20,000 nucleotides of DNA from an uncultured virus (IMG/VR IMGVR_UViG_3300020403_000008) (IMGVR_UViG_3300020403_000008), one strand, 5' to 3'; positions 1 through 16,478 are shown, counted from the first letter of the stretch. The notes: generated from the letters alone by a model not told the origin. Translations and numbers: made by a program.

Positions 1-174
1 AAACAAATTGCTTACTCTATATTATCCACTAAGTTCGGGGTTCAAGAATACATTGTCAGAAGATTTCAAAAAGAAGCGTTTGCTGCATTAAAAAACGCAA
101 GAATAAGATTGAACGATGTCAACCCTGTTGACCTTGTAAAAGCAATGAAAGGTCGAAACAAGTGGATTAAATAA
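1..174 (+). CDS. 3' end of a phage structural protein (probable tail tubular A/adaptor-ring protein), partial
   Basis: Frame 1 is open from base 1: KQIAYSILSTKFGVQEYIVRRFQKEAFAALKNARIRLNDVNPVDLVKAMKGRNKWIK*. Its TAA (172-174) overlaps the next ATG (TAATG). Identity is inferred from position directly upstream of the stabilization-type gene. Confidence 0.6.
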   Translation, partial: KQIAYSILSTKFGVQEYIVRRFQKEAFAALKNARIRLNDVNPVDLVKAMKGRNKWIK

Positions 175-3100
175 TGAGATTAAGAAATACTTTTATTGGC
201 GGCAAAATGAACAAAGACGTAGACGAGCGTCTTGTTCCAGATGGTGAGTACAGAGATGCTGAAAACATCAAAGTTGCTATGTCTAATAGTTCTGACGTAG
301 GTGCTCTAGAAAATGTGCTGTCTAATAAACAAAAATCTTTTTTAGATACAGGTAATAATGCTGAGACCATAGGTAGCGCAGCTGTTGAATATACTAATTG
401 TGTTTATTGGTTTGTAAAATCTGATACTTCAAGTGCTGTTTATGAATACAACATCACTACTGATTTACAAAGAATAATATTATTAGACACTAGAACGGGC
501 TCAGACAATGTATTAAATTTTAGCAAAGAAAATAGAATAAACAATGTTGACACTGTAGTTGATACTGACAATGGTAAAATATTTATATTCTGGACAGACG
601 GATTAAATCCTCCTAGAAAAATAGAAATAGATAGGGCTGCTGAATACGGAGAAAATAATTTTACAGATGAAGACATTAGTGTTATAGTAAAACCTCCTCT
701 ACATAGACCTACGTTTACATTATCAGCTACAAACACAGCTGACGAAAATTATATTAAAGATAAGTTTCTACAGTTTTCATATAGATATAAATATGTAGAC
801 AACCAATATTCAGCTATATCTCCTTTTAGCAATCCCGCTTTTGAACCGTATCCTTTTAAATACAACTACGGATTAAATAGTAACGAGTCTTTTGTTAACA
901 GATACAATGTTGTAAACCTAACAGTAAACTCAGGAAGTCATCTAGTAAAAGAGGTTGAGGTTTTATATAAAGAAGCTGGCAAACAAAATCTGTATGTTGT
1001 AGAATCCTACAACAAAGAGAAAAAAACATGGGATGATAATACTGAATATGTAGTTACATTTCAAAACAAAAAAATAAGCAAGATACTGCCAGAGAGTCAA
1101 ATTAAAAGAATATTTGATGCTGTACCAAGAAAAGCTTTTGCACAAACATTTATTGGAAACAGATTGCTTTACGCTAACTACACGGAGAACTGGAATCTGA
1201 TTGACGAGTTGGGGGGTGAAATAAAACCTGATTTTACTGCTTCTGTTCTTACAAATGAATTTGCTACCGCTCCATACACAACCATGAAGGCTGGTAGAGA
1301 CTACGAAGTTGGTATAGTTTATTTAGATGAATATGGCAGAACTACGACAGTTCTTACATCTGATGGAAACAGTGTTTTTGTACCAAACGAAAATGCATTA
1401 TATCAGTCTAAACTACAAGTTGAGATAAGAAGCAAAGCTCCTGTATGGGCAAAGTATTTTAGATTTTTTATCAAAGAAAGTAAAATGCCATACGACATAG
1501 TTATTCCTACAAGATTTTATGTTGATGGAGCTTATGTATGGATAGAGCTGACTGGTAGTGACGTTAACAAAATAGAAAAAGGAACACGCTTAGTCGTCAA
1601 GGCAGATACCTCTGGACCTGTAAAAGGATACGTAGAAACAGAAGTGTTAGACCTACAAACGCAAACTGTAAACTTTTTAGAGCCTGACCCAACAGTAGCA
1701 GAACTAGAGCAAAAAGCAGGATTATATTATAAAATAAGACCAAAAGGGTTTACTTTCAATAATAATGCAGTAGAATTATATGAGTTCGAATCAAATCACA
1801 GCACAAGGGATAGAAGGGAAAATATGATAGATAGGGGTGATAAGCTCCAATATTTTGGCGAACCAATCCCTTATTTATCAGAATCAACTTCACTTGCTGG
1901 AAACTCACTATCTAGGTCAGGAACTAATATAGCCCCAAGAGATATTAGATATAAAATAATAATAGATGCTGTAGGGGATGGTATTACAACCTACGATGAG
2001 TTTAGAGTTGAATATACTGACAACGGGGTTGCTTATGCTCAACCAGCCGTAACAATTACAGGGAGTAGTCAAACTATAACCAACGGGCTTAGTGTAAGCT
2101 TTAGCTCTCGTTCTGGTCATACTGTAGGTGATTATTGGGTGGTTAGTGGTTACGGTAAAGAACCTTTAAACTTTGGAAATCGTGACAGGTCTCATGCTTT
2201 ATTTAGAGGAGAACCTGGCAATGAAGTTATTGAGGCAGGCTCAATAGTAGAAATAGAATATATTGAATCACAAAAAGCTGGTGACGGATATAGCAACAGT
2301 TTTACAGAATCATACACTTCAAGTAGCAGATATGCAAATTTAGAAGAATGGTATTACGGAGAAAACCTTTCTGGATTTGGTCCAGGAGTTACAGATGCAC
2401 AAGTATTTTTTAGACATGTTAACTTGACTGACGACCATGGAGGTGAAGGAAAAACCGCCTTCAAAGTACAAGTACAGCAAAACGGTACCATGTGTATGAT
2501 AATCCAAAGTAAACAAAGACAATGGAATGAAAGAAATGCAAATGCAAGAGTTTACACAACAGGATTATTAGAAATAAAATCATCAGACAGCCTGCCTATA
2601 TTTGAAACTAAAGCAATAGAAAAAGATTCAGATATATTTTATGAAGTAGGAGACACTTATGAGTTATCAGACGATAACACTTTCCACATTGGTAAAGCTG
2701 GTGACGTCCCTCAGTCTTTTACTTCTCCTGCTACAATTACAATAGACGCCCACAATGCATGGGCTTGGGGGAATGGATATGAGTCAATAAAGATAAAAGA
2801 CCTATTTAATAATCCAACATTTGTTTTTGACACAAGACCAAGCACCTTTATAGAAAGTTATAGAGAAAATAACAGAGTAGCTTCTTTAACATATTCTGGA
2901 GTTTATGAGCAAAGCACAAATTTCAATGCCTTAAATGAATTTAATTTATCTACGGCAAACTTTAAAGATATAGATGACGCTTTAGGCAGCATACAAAAAA
3001 TAGTATCAAGAGATAATGATATTGTAGTATTCCAAGAAAACAAAATATCTAAACTCTTGTTTAATAAAAACATCATATTTAACACTGACGGCTCAGGAAA

Positions 3101-4082
3101 TATATCACAAACTAAAAATGTATTAGGAACTATAACTCCTTATACAGGTGAGTTTGGTGTTGGATTGAACCCTGAAAGTGTTTGTAAATATGGAAACGTA
3201 ATATATTTTGCAGACACAAGTAGAGGTTTTGTGTTCAGACTGTCTAACGATGGACTGACTCAAATATCACAGTATGGTATGGCAAACTTCTTTAGAAGTG
3301 AATTACCAGTGCGTGATTTAAATAAAACTTTAGGTGGATACAATCCTAGAGACGGAGAGTATATTTTATCTTTACAAGGAGGAACAGAATCTACAGACAC
3401 TTTGTTGTGGGTTGGAGATGAATATTTCTGTGAACAAACATTTGTTGATGATGTAGTAGAATGGAGAGGTACAGAAGCTGTATGTCTTGTTTCTTGTTAT
3501 GGAGATTGGAAACCTTCTGACATAGTAAGCGATGGTCAAGATTGGAGAATTGACGAGTATTATTGTGAGCAAGAAGAGCAAAGACCAACACCAATACCAA
3601 TTCCTACACCATCACCAGTGCCTACACCAGTACCCGTGGCTGTGCCGTCTCCATCTCCAGTGCCAGTACCTGTACCAGTGCCAGTTGTTGCTCCTAACCC
3701 AACGCCTGCACCAGCACCTACACCAGCGCCTGTAGCGGATTTACCACCAGTACCAGCACCAACACCTACCCCGTCACCAACACCTGCCCCAGTACCAGCG
3801 CCAACACCTGCGCCTACACCTACTCCTACGCCAGCGCCTGCACCAACGCCTGTACCAACTCCAGCTCCAGCAGCGCCAACAGCGATGAGACTAAACCCAT
3901 GTAACCCATTTGGTGTTTACAACAAAGTAATACCTTATGACTCTAATCTGTCAGTTGGAACCGTGGTTACAATAGAAGACGGAAACTGTTATGCAGTTAG
4001 TGCTGCTATCACTGATACAGCGAACTCTACAGTGTCACAAGTTTTCTTAAATTGTTATAATTGTACTAATGGAATATTTTAA
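174..4082 (+). CDS. Tail tubular protein B / 'stabilization protein'-like, N-terminal part, with an appended Pro-rich stalk and Cys-containing terminal module
   Basis: 1302 aa. The N-terminus F..GKMNKDVDERLVPDGEYRDAENI and internal motifs WTDGLNPPRKI, FSYRYKYVDNQYSAISPFS, GNRLLYANY, YEVGIVYLDEYGR and GEFGVGLNPES are ones I recognise from Bacteroidota-phage stabilization proteins. The conserved part ends near LGGYNPRDGEYILSL (~3330-3374). W-x6-C repeats, about 100 aa of (X-P)n and a C...C...CxxC module follow. Confidence 0.75.
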   Translation: MRLRNTFIGGKMNKDVDERLVPDGEYRDAENIKVAMSNSSDVGALENVLSNKQKSFLDTGNNAETIGSAAVEYTNCVYWFVKSDTSSAVYEYNITTDLQRIILLDTRTGSDNVLNFSKENRINNVDTVVDTDNGKIFIFWTDGLNPPRKIEIDRAAEYGENNFTDEDISVIVKPPLHRPTFTLSATNTADENYIKDKFLQFSYRYKYVDNQYSAISPFSNPAFEPYPFKYNYGLNSNESFVNRYNVVNLTVNSGSHLVKEVEVLYKEAGKQNLYVVESYNKEKKTWDDNTEYVVTFQNKKISKILPESQIKRIFDAVPRKAFAQTFIGNRLLYANYTENWNLIDELGGEIKPDFTASVLTNEFATAPYTTMKAGRDYEVGIVYLDEYGRTTTVLTSDGNSVFVPNENALYQSKLQVEIRSKAPVWAKYFRFFIKESKMPYDIVIPTRFYVDGAYVWIELTGSDVNKIEKGTRLVVKADTSGPVKGYVETEVLDLQTQTVNFLEPDPTVAELEQKAGLYYKIRPKGFTFNNNAVELYEFESNHSTRDRRENMIDRGDKLQYFGEPIPYLSESTSLAGNSLSRSGTNIAPRDIRYKIIIDAVGDGITTYDEFRVEYTDNGVAYAQPAVTITGSSQTITNGLSVSFSSRSGHTVGDYWVVSGYGKEPLNFGNRDRSHALFRGEPGNEVIEAGSIVEIEYIESQKAGDGYSNSFTESYTSSSRYANLEEWYYGENLSGFGPGVTDAQVFFRHVNLTDDHGGEGKTAFKVQVQQNGTMCMIIQSKQRQWNERNANARVYTTGLLEIKSSDSLPIFETKAIEKDSDIFYEVGDTYELSDDNTFHIGKAGDVPQSFTSPATITIDAHNAWAWGNGYESIKIKDLFNNPTFVFDTRPSTFIESYRENNRVASLTYSGVYEQSTNFNALNEFNLSTANFKDIDDALGSIQKIVSRDNDIVVFQENKISKLLFNKNIIFNTDGSGNISQTKNVLGTITPYTGEFGVGLNPESVCKYGNVIYFADTSRGFVFRLSNDGLTQISQYGMANFFRSELPVRDLNKTLGGYNPRDGEYILSLQGGTESTDTLLWVGDEYFCEQTFVDDVVEWRGTEAVCLVSCYGDWKPSDIVSDGQDWRIDEYYCEQEEQRPTPIPIPTPSPVPTPVPVAVPSPSPVPVPVPVPVVAPNPTPAPAPTPAPVADLPPVPAPTPTPSPTPAPVPAPTPAPTPTPTPAPAPTPVPTPAPAAPTAMRLNPCNPFGVYNKVIPYDSNLSVGTVVTIEDGNCYAVSAAITDTANSTVSQVFLNCYNCTNGIF

Positions 4083-5867
4083 ATGAGCAATACAGGGAAA
4101 AAAATAGTAACAAGGTTAAGACTGTTCAAGGACGGTTTAGCAACTAGCAAGACAAAACCAAATGTCGAGGGAGATAAATATTATGTTGCTCCATTCGAAG
4201 ATTTGGTAGATTGCAACCCTCTTGGACCACCAGCTCCTATACCTACTCCTACACCTGCGCCAGTTGCTGTGCCAGCTACACCACCTGTGCCTACACCTAT
4301 TCCTGTAGCGGTGCCTACGCCTTCGCCTACGCCTACGCCTAGCCCATCGCCTATTCCTGCACCTGTGCCTAATCCTTCACCAAGTCCAACGCCAGCTCCA
4401 GTAGTTGTGCCTGTACCTGTGCCTAATCCTATTCCAACCCCTGCACCTGTACCAAGCCCTGTACCTACCCCTGCACCTGCTGTAGCACCAACCCCTGCAC
4501 CAGTAATGCCTACACCTGCTCCTGTACCTGCTGCACCAACACCTGTACCAACTCCAGCTCCTTCTCCAGTAAGCTCTACTTATCATGTTTGGTCAGCAAA
4601 TGCAATAAGTATTAGTCAAGGAATTTATAGTGGAGATGTTTCCATAAGTGATGCGGAGCAAACAATATTTGGTCCTATAGGTAGCGGATATGATTCAACG
4701 TTAGCTTTATATTTAAGTGACGATAATGGAAGCTTAGATTCAGTACAAGCTCTTATCGCTTCAGCTGATGCTGGCGGAACTATAACTGCGTACTTAAGCT
4801 TTAACGAGATTCTTCCAATACAAGTAAATCAGTCAGCTCCTTACTTTGCTATAAACGAAGTAGGCGCAGGCACACAAGCGAACATAAGAAGCGCACAGCT
4901 TGTAATTAAAATAGGTACAGACAGCACTTTACAAGTTATAAACGGTTCTGATATATATTATGAAGTAGACCCTCTTAACCCTGTACCTTCTCCAGTTGCA
5001 GCTCCAGTAGCATCAGATGTATGTTTGACTAATCCTGCTGCTGTAACAATACAAAGCATTGGAGGTGGCAATAAATATGTATTTGGAGGCACATACGGAA
5101 ATTATAAAACATCAGTTGGAACTTATGTCTTAACAGGCGTTCCTTCAAGTCATCCTATTGCAATACTTAATGACGGAAAACAAGCCTTCATAAGTTATAC
5201 AGGAACTGTAATGGCAGGTTCAAAAGGCATAAATAATGTTTATCACGACTACTATTATGGCGATATAACGATAACTGTAAACGGAGATTATGGAACAGTA
5301 AGTTATGATTGCTTGAATCATGGATACATGGGAGGACAAGATAACTTAACATACGATAATGTTACATGTTCAGCTCCTTCTCCAGTGCCAGTTGCACCTA
5401 CGCCAATCCCTGTAGGAGCACCTATAGCAGCTCCAGTAGTAGCACCAACACCAGCACCTACTCCTGCTCCAACACCAGCTCCAGCACCTGTTCCTGCTCC
5501 AGCTAGCCAAACTTATAGTTTACCACAAGGCTCAACTATTAATGTTCAAGGCATGTTTATGAACGGAACGCTTTGGTATTATTTTGGAACTTATGGTAGC
5601 GATAGCTATACGTTTACCGCAACCTCAGGAACATATACATTCAACGTTCCTCAATCACACCCTATTGCTTTCTATACAGCGGGAACAACAAACAGCTACA
5701 GTGGAGGTACGGTGCAAGGAACTAAGAACGGACAAGACGGAAATAGCTATGATTATAGATATGGAACAGTAACATTAACAATAAATGATACAAGCGCAAC
5801 ACCAGTGACTTATGAGTGTTATTTCCATGGTTACATGGGAGGATTAAACAATCTCATATTGGTATAA
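4083..5867 (+). CDS. Pro-rich modular putative virion appendage protein with two cupredoxin-like (HP...CxxHGYMGG) repeats
   Basis: 594 aa, starting immediately after the upstream TAA. It has the shared N-terminal NTGxK..LR..KPN..Y..P..D...C module, (X-P)n tracts, and two similar domains each containing SHPIA and YxCxxHGYMGG. Confidence 0.7.
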   Translation: MSNTGKKIVTRLRLFKDGLATSKTKPNVEGDKYYVAPFEDLVDCNPLGPPAPIPTPTPAPVAVPATPPVPTPIPVAVPTPSPTPTPSPSPIPAPVPNPSPSPTPAPVVVPVPVPNPIPTPAPVPSPVPTPAPAVAPTPAPVMPTPAPVPAAPTPVPTPAPSPVSSTYHVWSANAISISQGIYSGDVSISDAEQTIFGPIGSGYDSTLALYLSDDNGSLDSVQALIASADAGGTITAYLSFNEILPIQVNQSAPYFAINEVGAGTQANIRSAQLVIKIGTDSTLQVINGSDIYYEVDPLNPVPSPVAAPVASDVCLTNPAAVTIQSIGGGNKYVFGGTYGNYKTSVGTYVLTGVPSSHPIAILNDGKQAFISYTGTVMAGSKGINNVYHDYYYGDITITVNGDYGTVSYDCLNHGYMGGQDNLTYDNVTCSAPSPVPVAPTPIPVGAPIAAPVVAPTPAPTPAPTPAPAPVPAPASQTYSLPQGSTINVQGMFMNGTLWYYFGTYGSDSYTFTATSGTYTFNVPQSHPIAFYTAGTTNSYSGGTVQGTKNGQDGNSYDYRYGTVTLTINDTSATPVTYECYFHGYMGGLNNLILV

Positions 5868-5871
5868 CAAC

Positions 5872-5887
5872 TATCTTTGTATGATAT
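5872..5887 (+). promoter_or_regulatory. Putative Bacteroidota-type -7 promoter element (TATCTTTG) followed by TATGATAT
   Basis: TATCTTTG at 5872-5879 matches TAnnTTTG and lies in the gap before the ATG at 5891. No clear -33 TTTG was seen. Confidence 0.45.
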
Positions 5888-5890
5888 AAT

Positions 5891-6880
5891 ATGGCAAATA
5901 CAGGAAGAAAAATATTCACAACGATACGTCAATATGTAAATGGCGTTTGGAATGGTAACGAGAAGTTCAATAGCACTGACGACCCCGATTACCAATACCC
6001 TGTTTATGATGAAGCTGAGTGCCCACTACCAGCTCCTCCTGTACCTAGCCCTATACCAACCCCTAGCCCAATACCAACACCTAGTCCAGTGCCTGTTCCA
6101 GTGCCAGCAGTAGTGGAAGTAGCCCCTAATCCAGTGCCAAATCCAGCGCCAACTCCAACTCCTGCGCCTGTGCCTGTTGTTATTCCTACACCTGCACCAG
6201 TTCCGAATCCAACACCAGCGCCACAACCAGCGCCGACACCCGCTCCTGCCCCAGTACCAGCGCCTGTTCCTGCTCCTACTTCAAACCAGTATGTGGTTCT
6301 AGGACATGGAAACACTCCAGAATCTGCATGTAACGATACTTTAAATGATTTATTTTATATTGATGGAGGACAATTAGCTACATCAACAAATGTATATTAC
6401 GATGAATGGGGTAATACAAAATCGCAACCACAATATTTTGCTCAAGCTGGAGTTGTAAGATATTGGAATGGACAACAGTTTACATCTTACGCAAGTTGTA
6501 ACCAACCAACACCAGCACCGAATGCACCTACGCCAATACCAGTAGCAGCACCAACAGCTAATTGCGGAAGCAATACATATTACCTAAGCGAAGGTAAATT
6601 CTATGGTTCTTATTTCTGCCAATCACCTTTTGGAGGAATGGTTGGAGGAGGAGCGGCAACGACTTACCCAATAACTATGGCGGTTACATCGAACTATCCT
6701 GGAAGCGTAAATGCTCAACTAGGAGCTCAACTATGTTACAATGGACAACCTTTTTCTGGAAACGGCTTCCATTATTTAATGAGTACCTTCCCTAGTAGTT
6801 TTAATGGAACAGGAAGTCATTCGATGGTAGTAATTAATGATGACGGTATAGTTACCTCAGTTAAATATATGACTTGTTAA
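5891..6880 (+). CDS. Pro-rich modular putative virion appendage protein
   Basis: 329 aa: shared N-module, (X-P)n stalk, a [17 protein letters not shown] domain shared with 7808-9598, and a C-terminal YLS..LGAQ..INDDGI..C domain shared with 6882-7616. Confidence 0.7.
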   Translation: MANTGRKIFTTIRQYVNGVWNGNEKFNSTDDPDYQYPVYDEAECPLPAPPVPSPIPTPSPIPTPSPVPVPVPAVVEVAPNPVPNPAPTPTPAPVPVVIPTPAPVPNPTPAPQPAPTPAPAPVPAPVPAPTSNQYVVLGHGNTPESACNDTLNDLFYIDGGQLATSTNVYYDEWGNTKSQPQYFAQAGVVRYWNGQQFTSYASCNQPTPAPNAPTPIPVAAPTANCGSNTYYLSEGKFYGSYFCQSPFGGMVGGGAATTYPITMAVTSNYPGSVNAQLGAQLCYNGQPFSGNGFHYLMSTFPSSFNGTGSHSMVVINDDGIVTSVKYMTC

Positions 6881-6881
6881 T

Positions 6882-7616
6882 ATGGCAAATACAGGAAGTA
6901 AAATATATAGAACACTAAGGCTCATAAAAAATGGAGTTAGGACTGTGCACGTAAAACCAAACGTGCCAGAAGACCCTGACTTTATTCCTCCTTTTACAGA
7001 CTTAGCAGATTGCTATACTAATGCTCCTGCACCTGCGCCTGTTCCTGTTCCTACTCCTGCTCCAGTACCTAACCCCGTGCCAACTCCAGGACCTGCACCT
7101 TCGCCAGTTCCTGCTCCAAGTGCAATACCTCCAACCCCAGCACCAACTCCTGCGCCAGTCGCAGATGTTGTACCAACTCCTTCACCGACACCTGCGCCAG
7201 TAGTAAAAGTTCCTTCGCCAGTTGGAGGAGGTTCTACTTTCTACTTGAGTGCACCAAGACAAACATCTGGAGAGCTTTGTACAGCTGCATTCTCAATAGT
7301 TATGAGTGTACAAGTTACAGCTGCTACGGTTGCAACATCGTTAGGAGCACAAGTAACTAAAGGTGGAGCTAAGTTCCGTGGTAATAACAAATATTACGCA
7401 ATGGACAATTCAAATAATTATACAACACACTCAGGAACAACATGGTTGGCTGTGTTAATTAATAATGATGGTATTATACAAGATATAGTTTACGTAAAAT
7501 GTGGAGATTATGATGTAATGGATGGCACAGGATGGGATGCCCCAGACCCTTATAGCACGACACCACAAGATGACGGTGAGCTTGTTTATTATTATAAAGA
7601 TACAATGAATTTATAG
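6882..7616 (+). CDS. Pro-rich modular putative virion appendage protein
   Basis: 244 aa: shared N-module, (X-P)n stalk, a domain paralogous to the C-terminus of 5891-6880, and an acidic tail. Confidence 0.7.
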   Translation: MANTGSKIYRTLRLIKNGVRTVHVKPNVPEDPDFIPPFTDLADCYTNAPAPAPVPVPTPAPVPNPVPTPGPAPSPVPAPSAIPPTPAPTPAPVADVVPTPSPTPAPVVKVPSPVGGGSTFYLSAPRQTSGELCTAAFSIVMSVQVTAATVATSLGAQVTKGGAKFRGNNKYYAMDNSNNYTTHSGTTWLAVLINNDGIIQDIVYVKCGDYDVMDGTGWDAPDPYSTTPQDDGELVYYYKDTMNL

Positions 7617-7618
7617 AT

Positions 7619-7801
7619 ATGAATTTTACAGGGAAAAAATATTATACAAAATTAAGAAAGTTCGTAAATGGAAAACCAACACAAGATGTGAAGGAAAACA
7701 TAATTACGGACCCAGATTATATAAAACCTTATGATGATATAAATGGATGCCCAAAAGGCACGTCTTCGCCTGCACCAGTTGCAGCGCCAACGACATATTA
7801 A
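7619..7801 (+). CDS. Small protein consisting almost solely of the shared N-terminal module
   Basis: 60 aa MNFTGKKYYTKLRKFVNG...KENIITDPDYIKPYDDINGCP plus SSPAPVAAPTTY. It fits exactly between its neighbours. Confidence 0.7.
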   Translation: MNFTGKKYYTKLRKFVNGKPTQDVKENIITDPDYIKPYDDINGCPKGTSSPAPVAAPTTY

Positions 7802-7807
7802 TTAATT

Positions 7808-9598
7808 ATGGGAGAGAAGTACAGTAAAATAAGAAAATATGTAAATGGCTTTCCAAGAAAAGATGAAGCCGTCAATAGCCCTAACGAGCCTGGGTACATT
7901 CCACCTGTATATGATGCAGGTCCATGTACTACATGTGAGCCAGAGGAAGATGGTGACATTATTGAATGGAGAGGTCATTCTTTTTACTGTGAGCAAGAAG
8001 ATGCTCCCACGCCCACTCCTAGCCCAACTCCTAGTCCTACGCCTAGTCCGACACCTAGTCCTACGCCTACGCCAACACCTACCCCTACACCGACTCCAAC
8101 ACCTAGTCCTAGTCCAGTCCCTGTACCAGCACCTAGTCCAATACCTGCCCCAGCGCCAATACCAGCTCCTTCTGTAGGATATGTATATTATACTGTTAAC
8201 GATTGTGCAAACACTTTTAATGATATTGTAAGAAGCACTTTTTCTCTTTCAACAGGAACTGTTGTAAAAGCCACAGGATTAAGTGGTTGTTTAGAAATAG
8301 GAAATTTAACACAGCCATCAGGCACAAACACTGTATATGAGGAATATACTGATTGTACTGATTGTGGCGCAACAACTCCTACTCCAACACCTAGCCCAAC
8401 ACCTACACCAACACCAGCGCCAGCTCCAATTCCAACGCCAGCGCCTGTGCCTAACCCAACCCCTGCGCCTACACCAGCACCTACTGTTACACCTGTAGTG
8501 CCTACTCCTGTACCTCAACCAACTCCAACGCCTGCGCCTACGCCAGCTCCAACACCTGCGCCAATACCAACGCCAGCACCTACACCAATTCCTAATCCGT
8601 CTCCAACTCCTGCTCCAGCAGCAACACCTTGCTATGAGTTTACTATTGGAAATGATGGAGACCCATTAGAAGACGATTCGTTCACATACAGATTATGTGG
8701 CGGAGGAAATTCATCAGGTTCAATACCATTTGGAGACCAAATCACTGTTTGTGCCGAGTCTTTCTCTCACATAGGAACTTCTCTAACTGTAACAAACACA
8801 TTAGTCCCTTGTTCTGGAAGCCCTGTACCTAGTCCAGTAGCACCTAATCCTGTGCCAACACCAGCACCCACACCAGCACCAGCTGCTACACTTTACTATG
8901 TTGCTTTAGGTAACGGAAACAGCGCTTCATCTGCTTGTAACGATACCTTAAACGACTACTTCTACATAGATAGTGGACAATTAGCTACTGCTAGCGGAAT
9001 ATATTATGATGCTGCGGGTCAGAACCCTGCGCAAGACACGCACTATACGGATGGAAATGGATTCTATGTTGTTTGGAATGGTTCGTCTATCACAAACCTA
9101 CAGTCTTGTCCTTCAGGACCTGCTCCAACAGCTCCTAATCCAGTATATACACCACCTACACCTAACCCTGTATATACACCACCTTCTCCATCACCTGTAG
9201 CGCCTACACCTAATCCTGTAGCACCTACGCCTAATCCTGTAGCACCTACACCTAATCCTGTAGCGCCAACACCTAACCCTGTAGCGCCAACACCTAATCC
9301 TGTGGCTCCCACGCCTACACCAGCGCCAGCACCAACTCCTACACCTGCACCGCAGCCAGTAGCTCCGCAGCCTGTACCGACACCAGCACCATCTTCTACG
9401 CCTGCATACAGAGTTGAAGTTCAAAAGCAAAGTGGAGTCACTTACATGATATTCACATATACTGATTCGTACGGAAACTCTCAGTACAAAAACAGTATGA
9501 ACTCTTATGAATATGTTTGTGCTCAAAACGGTAATATTCAACCTCAGTCAGGAGTACAAGGGTACCAGAACCTATACACAAGTTGTGTTGGTTCGTAA
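7808..9598 (+). CDS. Pro-rich multi-module putative virion appendage protein
   Basis: 596 aa: divergent N-module, a [11 protein letters not shown] motif, and four (X-P)n tracts separating four small Cys-containing domains. Confidence 0.7.
8018..8065 (+). repeat. 12-bp coding tandem repeat (PSPT x4)
   Basis: cctagcccaact cctagtcctacg cctagtccgaca cctagtcctacg. Confidence 0.8.
9134..9319 (+). repeat. Coding tandem repeats: 27-bp x2 (PNPVYTPP[T/S]) then 21-bp x~6 (PVAPTPN)
   Basis: 27-mers at 9134 and 9161. 21-mers cctgtagcNccWacRcctaaY at 9194, 9215, 9236, 9257 and 9278, with a degenerate copy at 9299. Confidence 0.85.
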
Positions 9599-9607
9599 AA
9601 AAATTAT

Positions 9608-9623
9608 TAACTTAGTATGATAT
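9608..9623 (+). promoter_or_regulatory. Putative promoter element upstream of the enzyme block (TAACTTAG-TATGATAT)
   Basis: One mismatch to TAnnTTTG. It is followed by the same TATGATAT as the 5872 site and lies in the largest intergenic gap (9599-9642). Confidence 0.35.
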
Positions 9624-9642
9624 TAAAATATAATACAATCAA

Positions 9643-10908
9643 ATGTTCTCAGAAATACCAAATTTTCTCACTCATGATGAGTGCGATTTATTTATACAAT
9701 TAATAGAAAAACAAAACACCCGTTCACAAGTTGCTGGAAGCGGAAGTGATAATTCAAAAATAGAAGATAGTAGGACTTCTTACACTTCTAATTTTGGCGA
9801 AGAAATGTTACTTCCAAAAGCTCTAAAAGAAAGAATTGCAGCTCATTTAGACTTAGATGTTGTAAGAGGTGAAACCTTGCAAGGTCAAAAATACGAAGTA
9901 GGTCAATATTTTAGACCACATCTAGATTGGTTTCAAGGTGATGCATATAACAACCATTGTTTGCATTCTGGAAACAGAACTCACACTTTCATGTTATATC
10001 TAAATGATGATTTTGAAGGTGGAGGTACTGATTTTCCAAACTTAGGTAAAACTGTAAAGCCAGAGAAAGGAAAAGCTGTATTCTGGCGTAACATGGATGA
10101 TAACGGAAACGGTATATCTGATGTTATGCATGAAGGTATGGATGTGACGAAAGGAACTAAATATATAGTTACAAGTTGGTGGAGAGAAAAAGAATTTAAT
10201 GGCGCTGAGAACACAAGGCTTGCAAATGAATTTCATGAAGCACAAAGAAAAGAAAAAGAGTCTAAGGTTGTAAATATTAATTCAGGCACACAAACATTTA
10301 AAACTGTAGATGAGATACCTAGATTTACAGAAAATGGATTTATGAAGGCTAAGGTTCCTCAAGATGTGTGGGGCTTAATTCAGGACTCATACCACTTATT
10401 AAAAGATAAGGAGGTTGCAGAAAAATTTTCAGGAAAAGAAGGCATTATAGATACAATAGTTACTGATGCCGAAAGCAGCACTATTTTAAGTTTTGAGCAT
10501 ATACCAAACATTAGAACTCAAATACATAAAATGTTAATGCCACTACATGAGGAGTGGGCAAAAACAAGGCTAGAACCATCTTTTGTGTATGGTATAAGGT
10601 CTTATCAAAGAGGAGCTACGTTAGCGAAACACGTTGACAGGATAGCGACTCATCACATATCTACTATTATTATTGTAGACAAAGATTTAAAGTGTGGTTG
10701 TCAAACAAAAGAGTTTGGTGATGATTGGGCTTTAGATATACAGGGTCATGACGGAGAGTGGTATGAAGTTTTTGCAGAACCAGGAGAAATGATTTTATAT
10801 GAATCTGCTGTCTGTGAACATGGTAGAAGTAAACCTTTTCAAGGAACAAGCTTCAAGAACTTTTATACACACTACAAGTTAGTTGATTACCAGTATGCGG
10901 GACAATAA
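9643..10908 (+). CDS. Tandem 2OG-Fe(II) dioxygenase: prolyl 4-hydroxylase-like domain plus a second dioxygenase domain
   Basis: Domain 1 has IPNFLTHDEC, RTS, ETLQGQKYEVGQYFRPHLDWF (H93-x-D95), NRTHTFMLYLND..EGGGTDFP, VKPEKGKAVFW, H163 and GTKY (K173), the canonical P4Hc layout. Domain 2 has YGIRSYQRGATLAKHVD (H330-x-D332) and PGEMILYES..CEHGR (H393). Confidence 0.88.
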   Translation: MFSEIPNFLTHDECDLFIQLIEKQNTRSQVAGSGSDNSKIEDSRTSYTSNFGEEMLLPKALKERIAAHLDLDVVRGETLQGQKYEVGQYFRPHLDWFQGDAYNNHCLHSGNRTHTFMLYLNDDFEGGGTDFPNLGKTVKPEKGKAVFWRNMDDNGNGISDVMHEGMDVTKGTKYIVTSWWREKEFNGAENTRLANEFHEAQRKEKESKVVNINSGTQTFKTVDEIPRFTENGFMKAKVPQDVWGLIQDSYHLLKDKEVAEKFSGKEGIIDTIVTDAESSTILSFEHIPNIRTQIHKMLMPLHEEWAKTRLEPSFVYGIRSYQRGATLAKHVDRIATHHISTIIIVDKDLKCGCQTKEFGDDWALDIQGHDGEWYEVFAEPGEMILYESAVCEHGRSKPFQGTSFKNFYTHYKLVDYQYAGQ

Positions 10909-13465
10909 ATATATTTCTTTTGACCCGTGGTGGGGTGGTTTCTCTAACATAAGAATGACGTATGAATTAGTAGGAGCTTTATCTGTTATAACTGGTAGAA
11001 CAATAATTTTACCTCACAGAATATATTGTTTGTTTTTATCAGAATGGCAAGATAAAAAAACATGGTTTGACATGTTTGATGCTTTAGATAAAAAAAAATT
11101 CAGAAAGCATTTTGATTGTATAGAATATTATGACATTCCAGAATATGAAAATCTTGAAAACGATGCGCAATATTTCGAAAATGTTTCGTCTATTGCGAAA
11201 GTTATTACTTTTGGCGACAAAGACGGAAAACTAGGTCCTATGAAAGGTCCTGATAATGATTATGTCTTAACATGTGGCATAGAGGACCAAAGCGAGTTTG
11301 ATGTTTTTAAAGGCGACAGACAAGTTATAGACTTAGAGTGTGATGATAAATTTATACACTTCCCTAGAAACTTGTTTGGTCATTTTTATTACCATGTTTA
11401 TGGTAAAACACCTATTATTAGAAACAGGATTAAAGAAAAAGTAAACTTAGGTATACAATACAAACCTGATATTTTTGATAAAGCCAAACAAATAACAGAC
11501 AAATTAGGAACATTTAATGCTATTCATGTTAGAAGAAATGATTTTCTGCAAGTAAGAAAAGATATTGCAGAAGCTCAAACTAATAATCTTTTAGATGACA
11601 TTTCTGACAGAGTGCCTAACGACAAACCACTATTTATAGCAACAGACGAAAAAGACAAGTCTGTGTTTTTGCCATTAAAAAAAAGATACAATGTATTATA
11701 CCTTACTGATTTTCCACAATCAGGAGTAAATGATACAGATGATTTGCTTTTAGACCAAGTTGTATGCTCTCAAGCAGATATATTTTTAGGCAGTCATTTA
11801 TCTACTTTTTCTGACTATGTAAACATTATTAGAGGTCAGCAAAACAAAAAAGATTTTCATAGAGAAGGCACTAATTTTAACAGACCCAAGTTATCATATA
11901 ATAGGTTTCCATGGGAAGTGGAAGAATATGGATGGGATAAAACCTGGAGCTTTCACTGGGAATATGAGCAATCATACTTTAACATAGCCGTATATGGGTC
12001 TCACAACGCTTCTGTTGCATTATCTTATAAAGCTGATGTTCTTGAGGTGGTAGAGCTAGAAAGGTTTGTAAACAAAAAAAATGCAGCGTTTTATTTCCAT
12101 TTTCCAGAAGAAAATCCAGATGAATTAACCCTACAGATACATAATTATTTTGTAAAAAAATATGGTAGCTACGTGTATGATAATTGCTTATATAATAGCT
12201 GTGTAACTAACATAAATGTTTTGCCTGCTAAAAACTTTGAGTGGGTAGGTCATCACCTTGCTCATGTCAATAATGTTATATTTCAATCTCCAGCAACAAA
12301 AAGCTTGAATATATCTTTTGATGGGGGTTCTGATGAAGGACATTTTAATATATATAGGACTGAATCAGATAAGTTGCCGCAAAAAATATTTTCTACAAAA
12401 CAAGATATATGCGTTCCTTATGCTGCCGTAGCGCACTACCTATCTCCAATAAAACAAGAAGAAAACTGGTGGTGGGGCAACTTAGTGTACGCAGGAAAAC
12501 TTATGGGGTTATCTGCCTACGGTACAGTTAATCAGGATGATTACGACAAAATGTATCGTTATTTTAAGATGCAACAAACAGACAACGTAAACACAGCACA
12601 TGAAAACTTTCAAAGAGTATTTAATGTAACTCCTGAAAAAAGATTTAACGAAAAAGAATCTTATGATTTAGCTGCTGCTACACAAAAAGTTTTTGAAGAT
12701 ATATTTAAAGAAATTGTAGAGCCTTTTGTAGAAACACATAAAGATTATGAATTACAATTTAGTGGAGGTGGCGCTCTAAACGTAATAAACAATGCTAAGT
12801 GGGATGCTTTTGTTAGTCCTAATCCTGATGACAGGGGACTGTCTGTTGGCATGTTGTTCCATAAAATAAAACCTGGTCACGTTGTTGACACAAAGTATTT
12901 AGGTTCAGATATGTTTGGCTTATATACTCAATATAAACCTTACAGTATTGATGAAATGTGTGAGGATTTAGTAGAAGGTAAAATTATTGGTTTGTGCCAA
13001 GGACGTGGAGAGCACGGAGCAAGAGCGTTATGTAACAGAAGTATTTTATGTTTACCTAAAGAGGGTTTCAAAGAAAAACTTAATGACCAAGTAAAACATA
13101 GAGAGGCTTTCAGACCTTTCGCACCTGTATGTCGAAAGGAGGACGCTAACACGTGGTTTGATTTTGGAAAGTACACCGAATATATGAGTCACAACGCTAT
13201 AGTTAAAAATGTAAATAAAAGTATACAATCTATAATTCACAAAGATTATACCGCTAGGCTGCAAACAGTCACCTCGTCATCAAATCCTTTTATTTATTTA
13301 CTCTTGACTAGAATGAAGGAATTAGGTCATGACCCAATACTAATTAATACATCATTTAATGTAATGGGAAAACCTATAATAAACCAGTGGGAAGAAGCTA
13401 TAAGTATGCTAAATGACACTGGATTAGATGTATTAACGGACGGTAAAAACAAAATATATGGATAG
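10895..13465 (+). CDS. Fusion: O-fucosyltransferase-like GT-B domain + NodU/CmcH/TobZ-family O-carbamoyltransferase
   Basis: The N-domain has GGFSNIRM...GRTIILP, AIHVRRNDF, LFIATDE and DQVVCSQADIFLGSHLSTFS (POFUT/O-FucT motifs). From ~11978 come SHNAS, ELERF, HHLAH, SFDGG, GKLMGLSAYG, SGGGALN, GARALCNRSIL, KHREAFRPFAP, TARLQTV and NTSFN. ATG 10895 is preferred over the TTG at 10883 used in the ORF track. Confidence 0.88.
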   Translation: MRDNKYISFDPWWGGFSNIRMTYELVGALSVITGRTIILPHRIYCLFLSEWQDKKTWFDMFDALDKKKFRKHFDCIEYYDIPEYENLENDAQYFENVSSIAKVITFGDKDGKLGPMKGPDNDYVLTCGIEDQSEFDVFKGDRQVIDLECDDKFIHFPRNLFGHFYYHVYGKTPIIRNRIKEKVNLGIQYKPDIFDKAKQITDKLGTFNAIHVRRNDFLQVRKDIAEAQTNNLLDDISDRVPNDKPLFIATDEKDKSVFLPLKKRYNVLYLTDFPQSGVNDTDDLLLDQVVCSQADIFLGSHLSTFSDYVNIIRGQQNKKDFHREGTNFNRPKLSYNRFPWEVEEYGWDKTWSFHWEYEQSYFNIAVYGSHNASVALSYKADVLEVVELERFVNKKNAAFYFHFPEENPDELTLQIHNYFVKKYGSYVYDNCLYNSCVTNINVLPAKNFEWVGHHLAHVNNVIFQSPATKSLNISFDGGSDEGHFNIYRTESDKLPQKIFSTKQDICVPYAAVAHYLSPIKQEENWWWGNLVYAGKLMGLSAYGTVNQDDYDKMYRYFKMQQTDNVNTAHENFQRVFNVTPEKRFNEKESYDLAAATQKVFEDIFKEIVEPFVETHKDYELQFSGGGALNVINNAKWDAFVSPNPDDRGLSVGMLFHKIKPGHVVDTKYLGSDMFGLYTQYKPYSIDEMCEDLVEGKIIGLCQGRGEHGARALCNRSILCLPKEGFKEKLNDQVKHREAFRPFAPVCRKEDANTWFDFGKYTEYMSHNAIVKNVNKSIQSIIHKDYTARLQTVTSSSNPFIYLLLTRMKELGHDPILINTSFNVMGKPIINQWEEAISMLNDTGLDVLTDGKNKIYG

Positions 13466-14312
13466 AATATTTTTAAGCATAGCATCATACAGAGACCCAG
13501 ACTTAATAAACACAATAAAAGACGCACACAAAAGAGCTGACAACCCTGACAGAGTAACATTTGGAATATTGTTTCAAGGCACTAAAGAAGAGATTAACAA
13601 TTTTCTTTCACAAGCTGTAGGAAAAATCAACATTAAGTTTGTACATCATAAAGAAACAAAAGGAACGGGGTGGGCAAGAAACATTCTTACAAGAGATATG
13701 TTGCAAGATGAAGAGTATTGGTTACAAATAGATTCACACACAAGATTTATAAATGGATGGGACACGAAGCTTATCGACTTCTACAACAAGATAGGAGAAG
13801 ATTGTTTGGTTTCAGCATATCCCCCACACTTTGGAATGAATGAGTCTTATGATGTATACACAACTAAAACAGTGAATAACAGAGCATTAGTAGAGGGATT
13901 TACTGATGTCTTTAGCTTTGAAAACACAGTAGGAAAAGTTCCTGTAGAAGAATATGAAGATTCAATAACAGCCGCTGGAGCTTTTCAATTTGCAAAAAGA
14001 CATGTAGCTAAGGCGCTGACATTTGATGCGTACTTTAATCCTTGGATGGACCAAGAAATATCTTCTTGCCTAGCGTGGATGAATGGATATAATATTTATG
14101 CGCCTAGAGATGCTGTTTTGTGGCACTGCTATGAAGATAATCATATAGGCTCTGATGAAAAATGGAGAGGTTTAGTTGCTGACGAAGTAAAAGTAACTGG
14201 TTATGAAGACAAGCCATTTGACATTATAAAGCACTGGCACACAAAAAGGAATTGGAACCAATGGAAGGATAGGGTTCTTGTAGATATTAATGATTTAAAA
14301 AACGAACAATGA
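13458..14312 (+). CDS. GT60 / Gnt1-like polypeptide (hydroxyproline or Thr/Ser) GlcNAc-transferase
   Basis: IFLSIASYRDP, KGTGWARN, EEYWLQIDSHTRF..GWD..LI (DSH motif), SAYPP and GYNIYAP...LWHCY match the Skp1-HyPro GlcNAc-transferase family pattern. There is no signal anchor. Confidence 0.82.
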   Translation: MDRIFLSIASYRDPDLINTIKDAHKRADNPDRVTFGILFQGTKEEINNFLSQAVGKINIKFVHHKETKGTGWARNILTRDMLQDEEYWLQIDSHTRFINGWDTKLIDFYNKIGEDCLVSAYPPHFGMNESYDVYTTKTVNNRALVEGFTDVFSFENTVGKVPVEEYEDSITAAGAFQFAKRHVAKALTFDAYFNPWMDQEISSCLAWMNGYNIYAPRDAVLWHCYEDNHIGSDEKWRGLVADEVKVTGYEDKPFDIIKHWHTKRNWNQWKDRVLVDINDLKNEQ

Positions 14313-15292
14313 AGACAGCTTTAGTTTTAGGTGGTGGAGGTTTTATAGGCTCACACCTTGTTAAAAGATTAAAAGAAGAAGGCTACTATGTTAGAGCAGT
14401 AGACTTAAAAAAACCTGAATTTTGGAAAACAGCAGCAGACGACTTTATTATAGGAGATTTGAGGTGGAGTCATATATGCTCTGCCGCATTTAGACCTTTA
14501 GAAGACAAAAGAAGGTTTGATGAAGTTTATCAGCTTGCTGCTGATATGGGTGGCGCTGGTTATCTGTTTACTGGTGATAGTGATGCAGATATTATGCACA
14601 ACTCTGCCTTAATAAACCTGAATGTGTTAAGAGAGTGTGTTCTTGAAGAGCATGCTCCTAAAAAAATATTCTATGCAAGTAGCGCCTGTGTGTATCCAGA
14701 GTACAATCAACTGGACCCAGAAAGCCCAAAATGTACAGAAGACAGTGTATATCCTGCTGAACCTGACTCTGAATATGGATGGGAAAAATTGTTTAGTGAG
14801 AGAATGTATATGGCTTTTGCAAGAAATAAAAACTTAAATGTAAGGATAGGGAGATTTCATGGAATCTTTGGACCATACGGAACATGGAATGACGGAAAAG
14901 AAAAAGCCCCTGCTGCAATATGCAGAAAGGTTGCGGAGTCAAACGATAGCATAGATATATGGGGAGACGGAGAGCAAACAAGGTCTTTTATGTATATAGA
15001 CGATGCTATTGACACAGTGCGTAAATTTATGATGAATGAAGGATTTCAAGGACCAATGAATATAGGTTCTGAAGAAATGGTGTCTATAAATAACTATGCA
15101 CGCATAGTAATGGAAGTTGCAAAAAAAGATTTGGATATTGTGCACATAGAAGGTCCTCAAGGTGTGAGAGGAAGAAACTCAGACAACACATTAATGGAGC
15201 AAGAATTGAACTGGACTCCAGGGGGTAGTCTTAGAGATGGTGTACAAAAAACGTACAAGTGGATTGAAGAGCAGGTGCAAAAACTGTCTTAG
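14309..15292 (+). CDS. GDP-mannose 3,5-epimerase-like NAD-dependent epimerase (extended SDR)
   Basis: GGGGFIG, QLAADMGGAG, YASSACVYP, YGWEK (YxxxK), EKAPAAICRK, WGDGEQTRSF and GPQGVRGRNSDN. ATGA overlap with the upstream gene. Confidence 0.88.
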   Translation: MKTALVLGGGGFIGSHLVKRLKEEGYYVRAVDLKKPEFWKTAADDFIIGDLRWSHICSAAFRPLEDKRRFDEVYQLAADMGGAGYLFTGDSDADIMHNSALINLNVLRECVLEEHAPKKIFYASSACVYPEYNQLDPESPKCTEDSVYPAEPDSEYGWEKLFSERMYMAFARNKNLNVRIGRFHGIFGPYGTWNDGKEKAPAAICRKVAESNDSIDIWGDGEQTRSFMYIDDAIDTVRKFMMNEGFQGPMNIGSEEMVSINNYARIVMEVAKKDLDIVHIEGPQGVRGRNSDNTLMEQELNWTPGGSLRDGVQKTYKWIEEQVQKLS

Positions 15293-15301
15293 ATAAATTA
15301 G

Positions 15302-15310
15302 TAAATTTGT
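15302..15310 (+). promoter_or_regulatory. Putative Bacteroidota-type -7 promoter element (TAAATTTG)
   Basis: Exact TAnnTTTG at 15302-15309, ending 4 nt before ATG 15314, where the structural backbone resumes. Confidence 0.45.
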
Positions 15311-15313
15311 GCT

Positions 15314-16054
15314 ATGGCAAACTACGAGAACAAGACAGTTGGGTTTAGTGAAATAAATAAAGGCTGGACGTCATTTTATTCTTACATTCCTGAAGATATG
15401 GTCTACATGAAGTCAGACTTTTATACTTTTAAGGGCGGTAATATATACAAACACAACATTGATGAGAGTTCTCGTAACAAATTTTACGATAAATTTTATC
15501 CTAGTAAGGTTGAAACCATCATAAACGATGACCCAGAAGCTGTCAAAAATTTTAGAACTCTCAACATGGAAGGCTCTTCTGCTTTCTGGAGAGTAGAAAT
15601 AAACACAGACTTAGATAAAGGCGGAGCGACTTATGATGATTTTGAAGAAAGAGAGCGATTGTTTAAGGCTCACATAAGAACCGACAGAGACGACAATCTT
15701 AACTTGGAAAGACTTACCGTGCAAGGATTAGGTACATTAATATCTACAAACGGCACGTCAATGTATTTTAGATTTATAGATAACGCCATTGAGTATGGTG
15801 ACTTCGTTTATAAAATATATGGTAACTCGTATACGTATTTAGGTAAAATTATTGCTGTATTTGAAGATTATATTATGTTAGACTCTATAGCGGACCCAGT
15901 AGAACTTGGTCAATTTTGCTTTGCAACAAAAGACCCAGTGATAGAAAGCTATGGACTAAAAGGATATTTTGGTAGCTTTACGTGTACAAGTTATGAATCA
16001 ACTCCAATAGAATTGTTTGCAGTTGGTACAGAAGTAACGCAAAGCAGTAAATAA
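15314..16054 (+). CDS. Separately encoded C-terminal part of the tail tubular B / stabilization protein
   Basis: 246 aa beginning KTVGFSEINKGWTSFYSYIPE..FYTFKGGNIYKHN...RNKFY...KNFRTLNMEG and ending ESYGLKGYF...ELFAVGTEV..SS. I recognise these as the usual C-terminal motifs of this protein family. Confidence 0.7.
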   Translation: MANYENKTVGFSEINKGWTSFYSYIPEDMVYMKSDFYTFKGGNIYKHNIDESSRNKFYDKFYPSKVETIINDDPEAVKNFRTLNMEGSSAFWRVEINTDLDKGGATYDDFEERERLFKAHIRTDRDDNLNLERLTVQGLGTLISTNGTSMYFRFIDNAIEYGDFVYKIYGNSYTYLGKIIAVFEDYIMLDSIADPVELGQFCFATKDPVIESYGLKGYFGSFTCTSYESTPIELFAVGTEVTQSSK

Positions 16055-16058
16055 TTTA

Positions 16059-16478
16059 ATGAAATTTAAATTAAGAAGGCTAGTAGAATCAGATTACGAT
16101 ACTCTAGTAAAATGGTGGAAAGATTGGAAGTGGGAACCTGCTCCAAGAGATTTTCTGCCTGAAAATGGAACAGGTGGCTTTATGGTCACCAAAGATAAAA
16201 AAGAGATATGTGCAGGTTTTATATACCTGACTAACTCTAAAGTTGCTTGGATTGAATTTGTAATATCAAACAAGCAATATAAAGAAAAGGATAGAAAAGA
16301 TGCTATCCAATTTTTAATAAACAGCTTATCTGCTGTAGCTCAAGAAACAGGAGCAAAATATGGATACGCTGTATTAAAACATAAGGGACTGAAGTTTTAT
16401 TATGAAAACTCAGGTTTTTTTGAAAGTGATAAGAACATAACAGAAATGATAACAGTATGGCAGCAGCAACAACAGTAG
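16059..16478 (+). CDS. GNAT-fold acetyltransferase-like phage protein
   Basis: 139 aa with LRRLVESDY, ICAGFIY, AWIEFVISNKQY and FYYENSGF. Its position between tail tube and ejection genes is usual for podoviruses. Confidence 0.65.
   Translation: MKFKLRRLVESDYDTLVKWWKDWKWEPAPRDFLPENGTGGFMVTKDKKEICAGFIYLTNSKVAWIEFVISNKQYKEKDRKDAIQFLINSLSAVAQETGAKYGYAVLKHKGLKFYYENSGFFESDKNITEMITVWQQQQQ

Follow-up and report, generated by a model that had tools for sequence, protein, structure and literature searches.

What becomes of a phage tail nozzle whose gene has been cut in two, and what are the genes that occupy the cut doing there? The question is posed by a 20,000-nucleotide stretch of an uncultured crAss-related phage (IMG/VR IMGVR_UViG_3300020403_000008), hereafter the window, in which the muzzle, or tail nozzle, is encoded by two separate open reading frames (ORFs), ORF 174 and ORF 15314, with nine further plus-strand ORFs between them. 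The first-pass annotation of this DNA had proposed a core tail gene split in two with a multi-gene cassette at the break, and this arrangement holds: the single-chain gp97 of phage phi38:1 maps onto it in two pieces. Taken as a whole, and as read from sequence, the locus probably encodes a two-chain muzzle that displays hydroxyproline-glycosylated stalks.

Two ends of one muzzle chain

The family-like part of ORF 174-4082 (1302 amino acids, aa) scores 68.6 bits against PF25731 (cut-off 27) and stops at LGGYNPRDGEYILSL (aa 1067, nt 3374), after which, as had been described at the outset, come three W-x6-C motifs (W1079, W1097 and W1124), a proline stalk and a cysteine module. The second ORF, in a different frame 11.2 kb away and not part of the same polypeptide, does open almost at once, from aa 8, with TVGFSEINKGWTSFYSY; it scores 46.5 bits against PF25729, above the curated cut-off of 27, and matches phrog_18548, a family of 241 positions. 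Specifically, aa 1-1076 of gp97 map to the N-part (40%, E 0) and aa 1079-1321 to the C-part (28.5%, E 1e-16), and mapping gp97 on the window's own genome gave no second copy of either half.

The same continuity is seen in crAss001 gp44 (7QOK/7QOL/8CKB; PF25731, PF25729; Bayfield et al. 2023, PMC10172136), a single 1371-aa chain that occupies the same place in the tail module and shows homology to either side of the break. A profile built from 44 fused homologues crosses the junction on gp44 (7qok; E 2.9e-21, over 1049-1285), while one of 71 stand-alone C-parts matches gp44 1200-1282 (E 2.4e-11) and starts at residue 1200; the junction residues, at about 1199/1200, are contiguous in gp44. Aligning aa 1-1067 of ORF 174 plus ORF 15314 to full-length homologues, the check suggested by the first-pass annotation, runs end to end on both gp97 and gp44. 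Single-sequence PDB searches with either half matched no nozzle. The crass and IG2 domain insertions described for gp44 end at 1021 (PMC10172136), so that the break, at gp44 position ~1200, lies past them in the C-terminal propeller part; the word "split" is absent from the main text of that paper. Judged by these alignments, aa 1-1067 of ORF 174 and ORF 15314 represent the opposite ends of a single ancestral muzzle chain.

Non-covalent reassembly of the halves is the best inference and, in our assessment, very probable, given the end-to-end alignment on fused homologues, the short linkers in those homologues, the fixed break column (both below) and a solved precedent in the Pseudomonas podophage A1002. 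ORF 15314 would thus contribute the final propeller strands, which the N-part would lack, together with the ring-joining end, by strand complementation and with no splicing. In A1002 (Pang et al. 2026, PMC13730344), the nozzle is divided between gp42 and gp39, which are held by beta-strand complementation; the second part contributes two incomplete blades and platform-C, an extension carries fibre proteins docked one after another through strand augmentation, and the fibre genes gp40 and gp41 lie, by their numbering, between the nozzle genes. A1002 differs in nozzle family and host, and its docking rope is on the C-part, whereas the W-x6-C strands here are on the N-part; the part of that report consulted describes no modifying enzymes. 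A split nozzle is therefore already known, and what the window adds is another family, a cassette larger than any other seen and a gene set that probably serves hydroxyproline glycosylation of the stalks. No gp39 or gp42 chain of A1002 appeared in our PDB searches with the halves or profiles, made on a PDB copy that may predate those entries.

The C-part had also been credited with a promoter-like box. The box itself, TAAATTTG, is present, and we take its form to be a possible Bacteroidota-type promoter element; its pattern, TAnnTTTG, occurs in the window about as often as chance predicts (23 found vs 25 expected) and stands upstream of only 10 of the 54 distinct C-part genes, which makes it a weak feature. 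Scans for sigma-70 promoters and terminators were likewise at chance level (61 vs 60 and 13 vs 13). Separately, ten stand-alone C-parts of 323-688 aa match only to about aa 146 (window 15750 region of ORF 15314); these long C-parts, including P0024, P0036, P0045, P0058, P0060 and P0076, suggest that the C-part contains a further hotspot for insertions.

An old and recurrent break

Relatives of the C-part fall into 2487 clusters, of which we classed the best 150: 86 are stand-alone (2 with doubtful starts), 50 are fused to an N-part, and the remaining 14 carry another N-terminal extension or are fragmentary. Fused homologues thus exist, and the condition that had been named as fatal to the split, that C-half homologues always stand alone, does not hold. 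In 47 of the 50 fused proteins, the linker is at most 22 aa. We examined 7 named phage records among the 87 that match: four are continuous at the site (phi38:1, elemoC_13-1C, Gundel_1 and Panino, the last broken further upstream) and three are split here (phi19:3, phi13:2 and MW202828). The interruption further upstream in the Panino muzzle (L005:12001-15914) is matched by short "fused" ORFs of 400-540 aa in L069, L073, L080, L082 and L086, so that the muzzle has further break points.

We retrieved 150 loci with both halves, which reduced to 75 distinct loci at 90%, 49 split and 26 fused. In 48 of the 49 split loci, the N-part stops within columns 219-221 of a hidden Markov model (HMM) with 223 columns. 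Their gaps span 0-11.2 kb and 0-9 genes, 15 of them holding no gene, and the window has both the largest gap and the most genes, in a survey whose 10-kb flanks would let larger gaps escape. On a quick maximum-likelihood tree of 67 rows, from which Panino, short rows and near-duplicates were left out, the split state changes five times, counted without direction (gain or loss), starred branches force at least three of these changes, and a topology with all split rows in one clade is rejected (p-AU 2e-67). The two-chain state was gained or lost several times at one loop.

The muzzle break is thus old and common and not special to the window's genome, and its site is an insertion hotspot, as the first-pass annotation had held. 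The companion idea, that this loop grew into nine genes in a singular expansion, does not stand: because the break is old and common and 15 of the 49 split loci lack any gap gene, the cassette filled a slot that already existed. Adjacent halves are also found in Baltivirus phi19:3 and phi13:2 (Pachyviridae; KC821608, NC_021803), where gp120 and gp121 are divided at the same break, the C-part is a separate protein of 241 aa, and both genes are annotated as structural proteins. The 498-aa N-part extension of phi19:3 has no W-x6-C strand or stalk, and no gene for the module described below, for a prolyl 4-hydroxylase (P4H) or for an HPAT-like transferase was found there. For Cellulophaga phages, "structural protein" labels reportedly derive from virion mass spectrometry. 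One practical consequence is a corrected annotation: many "structural proteins" of 240-260 aa that stand alone (phrog_18548) constitute the muzzle's second chain. A literature search that covered few subscription papers and excluded supplements found no description of a split crAss-type muzzle and no note of the phi19:3/phi13:2 split; supplements of the crAss001 and Yutin papers, outside that scope, may record fragmented muzzle genes.

Stalked proteins that share a 48-aa module

The first-pass annotation passed over the content of the cassette, which probably comprises, as far as homology can tell, appendage proteins with a shared module and a matching set of protein-modification enzymes (Table 1).

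Table 1. Features of the muzzle locus, in window coordinates.
Feature	Coordinates	Strand	Basis or remark
Muzzle (tail nozzle) N-part, aa 1-1067 of ORF 174-4082	174..3374	+	PF25731, phrog_14478
Three W-x6-C strands, candidate docking strands	3408-3431, 3462-3485, 3543-3566	+	sequence
N-part extension: (X-Pro)n stalk and end module containing Cys	3582..4082	+	stop 4080-4082
594-aa appendage: module, Pro stalks, two domains ending in C-x2-H-x2-M	4083..5867	+	
329-aa appendage: module, Pro stalk, two small Cys domains	5891..6880	+	
244-aa appendage: module, Pro stalk, one end domain	6882..7616	+	
60-aa protein, module almost alone	7619..7801	+	
596-aa appendage: module, fourth W-x6-C strand (7967-7990), long Pro stalks, small Cys domains	7808..9598	+	
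Prolyl 4-hydroxylase-type 2OG-Fe(II) oxygenase with second oxygenase-like domain	9643..10908	+	PF13640
O-fucosyltransferase-like glycosyltransferase fused to NodU-type carbamoyltransferase	10883..13465	+	likely ATG start 10895
GT60-type polypeptide/hydroxyproline GlcNAc transferase homologue	13458..14312	+	PF11397
GDP-mannose 3',5'-epimerase homologue	14309..15292	+	PDB matches
TAAATTTG box	15302-15309	+	upstream of C-part; weak feature
Muzzle C-part, 246 aa	15314..16054	+	PF25729, phrog_18548

All five Pro-rich cassette proteins begin with a 48-aa module in which Gly, Asn and Cys residues are invariant, and the extension of the N-part is Pro-rich as well. Together, the six stalk-bearing proteins hold 412 prolines. 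Of these, 285 belong to (X-Pro)≥3 runs, in 87 cases with Thr as the X residue, and Pro-Pro pairs number only 11; the 594-aa protein (module HMM E 6e-23; ratio of nonsynonymous to synonymous substitution, dN/dS, 0.21) contributes 89 prolines, 67 in such runs, and the 596-aa protein 134, 105 in such runs. The 60-aa protein is 93-95% identical in two other contigs and has no family in Pfam, PHROGs or Atlas. Neither the module nor the end domains match a family in Atlas, Pfam, PHROGs or NCBIfam; the end module of the N-part extension has no Pfam family, and the end domains of ORF 4083 gave only a sub-threshold GLEYA match in Pfam. These two domains are related, each with C-x2-H-x2-M (5310-5330 and 5817-5837; aa 410 and 579) and an upstream His-Pro, a combination that resembles a blue-copper site. 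Elsewhere, the module occurs in 184 clusters of longer proteins and is N-terminal in the 120 listed, where the next tract is, at the thresholds used, Thr-rich in 52 and Pro-rich in 26.

The module travels with the W-x6-C strands. Among the 49 split loci, 24 have both the module and a strand after the break, none has a strand only, one has a module only and 24 have neither, with Tyr accepted in place of Trp in the count. The module is fused to the N-terminus of the C-part in L021, L135, L266, L291, L295 and P0003, and a W-x6-C strand stands directly ahead of it within one chain in four unrelated proteins (P0179 and P0271-P0273). These in-chain arrangements suggest that strand and module are one small domain that has been divided between chains. 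Further, in other phage groups, a gene with a high-scoring W-x6-C strand adjoins a module gene (L111, L131, L132, L147 and L148). In L111, L131, L132, L134, L126 and L138, the module lies behind a propeller-like gene with a W-x6-C strand, and in L134 module and propeller share a chain. In L147 (7509-10906) and L148 (7438-10906), a fused muzzle is followed by a module gene, a W-x6-C/Thr-stalk gene and an HPAT-like transferase; the kit is therefore independent of the split.

How the stalked proteins are held is the less certain part of this picture. The cut frees two new protein ends and an intergenic slot, which relatives fill with 0-9 genes; the new end of the N-part carries the W-x6-C strands, and the module of each of the five small proteins may complete a disulfide-closed domain on such a strand, so that the docked proteins would hang Pro-rich stalks with end domains from the tail tip. 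We regard this docking on the muzzle extension as a close call that falls slightly on the side of doubt. Alternatively, the module proteins may bind another tail protein or one another, the W-x6-C motif being a repeat that folds on itself, which we consider possible, if somewhat doubtful. Several observations weigh against docking. Strands and modules can differ in number (5 vs 1 in L101 and, within the window, 4 vs 5), and similarity between in-chain and muzzle strands is so weak that 4-20% of 74 null motifs score as high, a profile comparison of the two being not significant (E 0.35); both points favour the alternative, as do module genes in loci where no W-x6-C strand was found nearby, many of these on short contigs. 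In addition, the module requires only two changes on the tree, so that its pairing with W-x6-C in muzzles is largely one inherited event, and L266 has a module and no counted strand. A search for longer in-chain forms of the combined domain found none among 43 candidates, which is weak evidence. What speaks against attachment without the strand is that none of the 24 strand-bearing split loci lacks the module and that the pairing recurs in phages with fused muzzles and in other phage groups. If docking on the strand is correct, module and strand would amount to a small natural tag-and-catcher pair, in which 48 aa capture a strand of 8 residues.

Four enzymes and their probable substrate

The remaining four cassette genes encode enzymes of unrelated origin. 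All nine PDB matches of the ORF 9643 product are prolyl 4-hydroxylases (best E 3e-23), and its iron triad (H93-x-D95, H163) and 2-oxoglutarate (2OG)-binding K173 are intact; by triad, lysine and nearest structures, it is a predicted collagen/plant-type P4H. Its second domain (10270-10908) matches phrog_2954 and has an HxD motif at aa 330 and no detectable similarity to the first. The 10895 product scores above the cut-offs of PF10250, PF02543 and PF16861, matches POFUT2 at E 1e-5, and matches NodU at E 1e-31, below the cut-off for that family. The 13458 product reaches 116 bits against PF11397 (cut-off 21), has a DSH motif at aa 92 and found no match in the PDB. The Skp1 hydroxyproline transferase is another GT60 member. 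GT60 enzymes include Thr/Ser mucin-type initiators (PMC8724618). The five best PDB matches of the 14309 product lie at E ~1e-87 to 1e-88, the next family at 1e-22.

We consider it likely, from gene content and homology, that these four enzymes modify the stalks, presumably in the cytoplasm. The hydroxylase would form hydroxyproline in the (X-Pro)n runs, the epimerase would supply a GDP-L-sugar to the O-fucosyltransferase (O-FucT)-like domain, the GT60 enzyme would add an N-acetylhexosamine to hydroxyproline or Thr, and the carbamoyltransferase would cap a sugar; in what order the sugars are added, and to which acceptors, is guesswork. Stalks so modified would resemble extensin, being stiff and resistant to proteases, and would present binding domains. 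The closest known parallels, Skp1 hydroxyproline glycosylation, GT60 initiation in protists and plant extensins (PMC8724618), likewise combine a P4H with PF11397/GT60 and further glycosyltransferases, and the Pro-rich stalks resemble hydroxyproline-rich glycoproteins such as extensin. The Skp1 system differs in being eukaryotic and in modifying one site, whereas the window has (X-Pro)n repeats with nearly no Pro-Pro, lying in phage proteins, and an added epimerase and carbamoyltransferase; no Skp1 family member was found among the 15 window ORFs scanned, and the candidate substrates are the repeat stalks. Mycobacteriophages also glycosylate virion proteins with phage-encoded glycosyltransferases (Freeman et al. 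2023, as cited in PMC12619734), there on the C-termini of capsid and tail-tube proteins and with no hydroxylase step described in the part of that source consulted.

The distribution of stalks and enzymes is consistent with modification of the stalks. Stalks were called at step 10, in 20-aa windows with 8 Pro or 10 Thr; L121, whose Pro stalk was missed at step 20, had it set by hand for the pair test. Counted over the 75 distinct loci as both, first only, second only and neither, the pairings are 5/1/0/69 for Pro stalk and P4H, 5/0/0/70 for P4H and O-FucT, 23/1/3/48 for Thr stalk and HPAT-like glycosyltransferase and 28/0/2/45 for any stalk and any glycosyltransferase; GT60 and the carbamoyltransferase each occur in only 2 of the 5 P4H loci. 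In 45 whole records, hand-picked and 27-100% complete, P4H is present in 8/8 with Pro stalks and 0/37 others, and the HPAT-like gene in 18/18 with Thr stalks (7 of which were fetched with that gene itself), 3/8 with Pro stalks and 0/19 without stalks. It is absent from the window's genome, and its label stems from one Atlas match (0.97) to a cluster with 10% PF23452 that Pfam and PDB did not confirm. On the tree, Pro stalk and P4H change twice each, concordantly. Relatives at 60-85% identity have an additional 169-aa methyltransferase-like gene directly before the hydroxylase (L010:693-1202, L011:1008-1517 and L012:1419-1928), and the muzzle gap of a Thr-stalk relative (L022:7349-8398) holds a radical SAM/SPASM gene and a putative mannosyltransferase.

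Other results count against this assignment of the enzymes. Once kinship is taken into account, Thr stalk and glycosyltransferase give five pairs with the association, none against and three without difference (p 0.06), and Pro stalk and P4H only two with and none against (p 0.5), neither being significant. Many positive loci were fetched by module or glycosyltransferase queries and are hence enriched. L244 has GT60 and a mainly Thr stalk and no P4H, so that GT60 may act on Thr. In chlorovirus PBCV-1, a eukaryotic virus, unlike the window's phage, the P4H is active on Pro-containing peptides, yet hydroxyproline was not detected in virions, according to the part of the source covered (PMC7019647).

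The PBCV-1 result and the presence of only two phylogenetically independent Pro/P4H pairs also lend some weight to a different reading, in which the muzzle is split and bears Pro-rich appendages while the enzymes occupy a tolerated late-operon slot and act on a host surface glycan, a host protein or a metabolite; PHROGs indeed classes GDP-sugar epimerases, NodU-type carbamoyltransferases and 2OG oxygenases as auxiliary metabolic genes. We find this unlikely: enzyme type tracks stalk chemistry in the 45 whole records, the hydroxylase and both transferases are members of families that modify proteins, and none of these enzymes occurs in stalk-less relatives.

An enzyme block devoted to DNA hypermodification, with oxygenase, carbamoyltransferase and glycosyltransferases acting on bases, is very unlikely. 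Phage PF02543/PF16861 carbamoyltransferases do modify 5-hydroxymethylcytosine, and the same source ties the DNA-acting enzymes to a thymidylate-synthase homologue (PMC8670742, as far as covered), for which we found no match in the 95%-complete record, with the control positive in 10 of 14 genomes. The oxygenase is moreover P4H-like, the carbamoyltransferase is present in only two of five P4H loci, and the block sits among tail genes; a search for TET/JBP oxygenases gave no match in the record, the control genomes also giving none.

If modification of the stalks is correct, it would provide a concrete substrate for phage prolyl 4-hydroxylases and an instance of hydroxyproline-linked glycosylation in a bacterial virus, which our literature search did not find described for bacteriophages. 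A broader scenario, which we put forward as doubtful in its full form, is that in a clade of marine Flavobacteriia podophages the muzzle cut serves as a plug-in rail: tandem W-x6-C peptides would capture stalk proteins through a split, disulfide-locked domain, and the phages would carry an O-glycosylation pathway of their own, in which a one-enzyme route acting on Thr would have given way at least twice to a hydroxyproline route of plant/protist type as stalks turned from poly-Thr to (X-Pro)n.

Integrity of the locus

Covalent rejoining of the halves, whether by RNA splicing, by protein splicing or by excision of the cassette as a mobile element, deserves mention, as introns and inteins are abundant in crassviruses (PMC7886860), and it is highly improbable here. 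In agreement with the first-pass annotation, which saw no integrase, intron or intein signature, the 15 window ORFs contain no Hint/intein or integrase family in Pfam or PHROGs, Rfam gave no match at E≤1, and no repeat pair flanking the cassette was found. No joint from 3374 to 153xx is listed in one DNA and three RNA runs. Split C-parts start with their own Met, and split N-parts bear unrelated extensions of 19-1395 aa. Stop-codon read-through was also rejected as a link: the TAA of ORF 174 directly precedes the in-frame ATG of ORF 4083 (4080-4085), yet later ORFs change frame, and the arrangement is not kept in L017 and L019, which have 10-nt gaps.

The repetitive Pro-rich genes might raise the suspicion of an assembly chimera or of a dead, disrupted gene, a notion refuted by an identical layout in other contigs, flat coverage in an independent DNA run and purifying selection on all 12 segments tested. 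Specifically, two other IMG/VR contigs at 96-97% aa identity contain both halves and the identical nine genes, and pieces of relatives at 66-75% share the layout. The DNA run, from another study, covers 30/30 bins at ~8-13x outside repeat-rich bins, with one contig piece over the break (1-3727) and another over the C-part start (14778-16500), no single piece spanning the whole stretch. Three RNA-library contigs read through 3374; they indicate presence only, and such libraries may contain DNA, which weakens them as support. Against one other contig, dN/dS is 0.043 for the N-core and 0.055 for the C-part, denoting strong purifying selection, 0.045-0.08 in the four enzymes and 0.19-0.32 in stalk-bearing segments.

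Genome setting

The window forms the final 20 kb of a virus record of 65,956 bp that is 95% complete, and the sequencing runs that contain it are of marine origin. Its putative capsid protein matched 85 records, all from Flavobacteriia phages or one unassigned record, with identities of 55% to Manatee Spring, 52% to Elemovirus, 38% to Callevirus and 26% to Baltivirus; by this protein, the virus would be a Flavobacteriia-type podophage. Two further genes (G000 C1:17277-18866, 529 aa, and 20022-20279, 85 aa) encode what we take to be look-alikes of GroEL and GroES.

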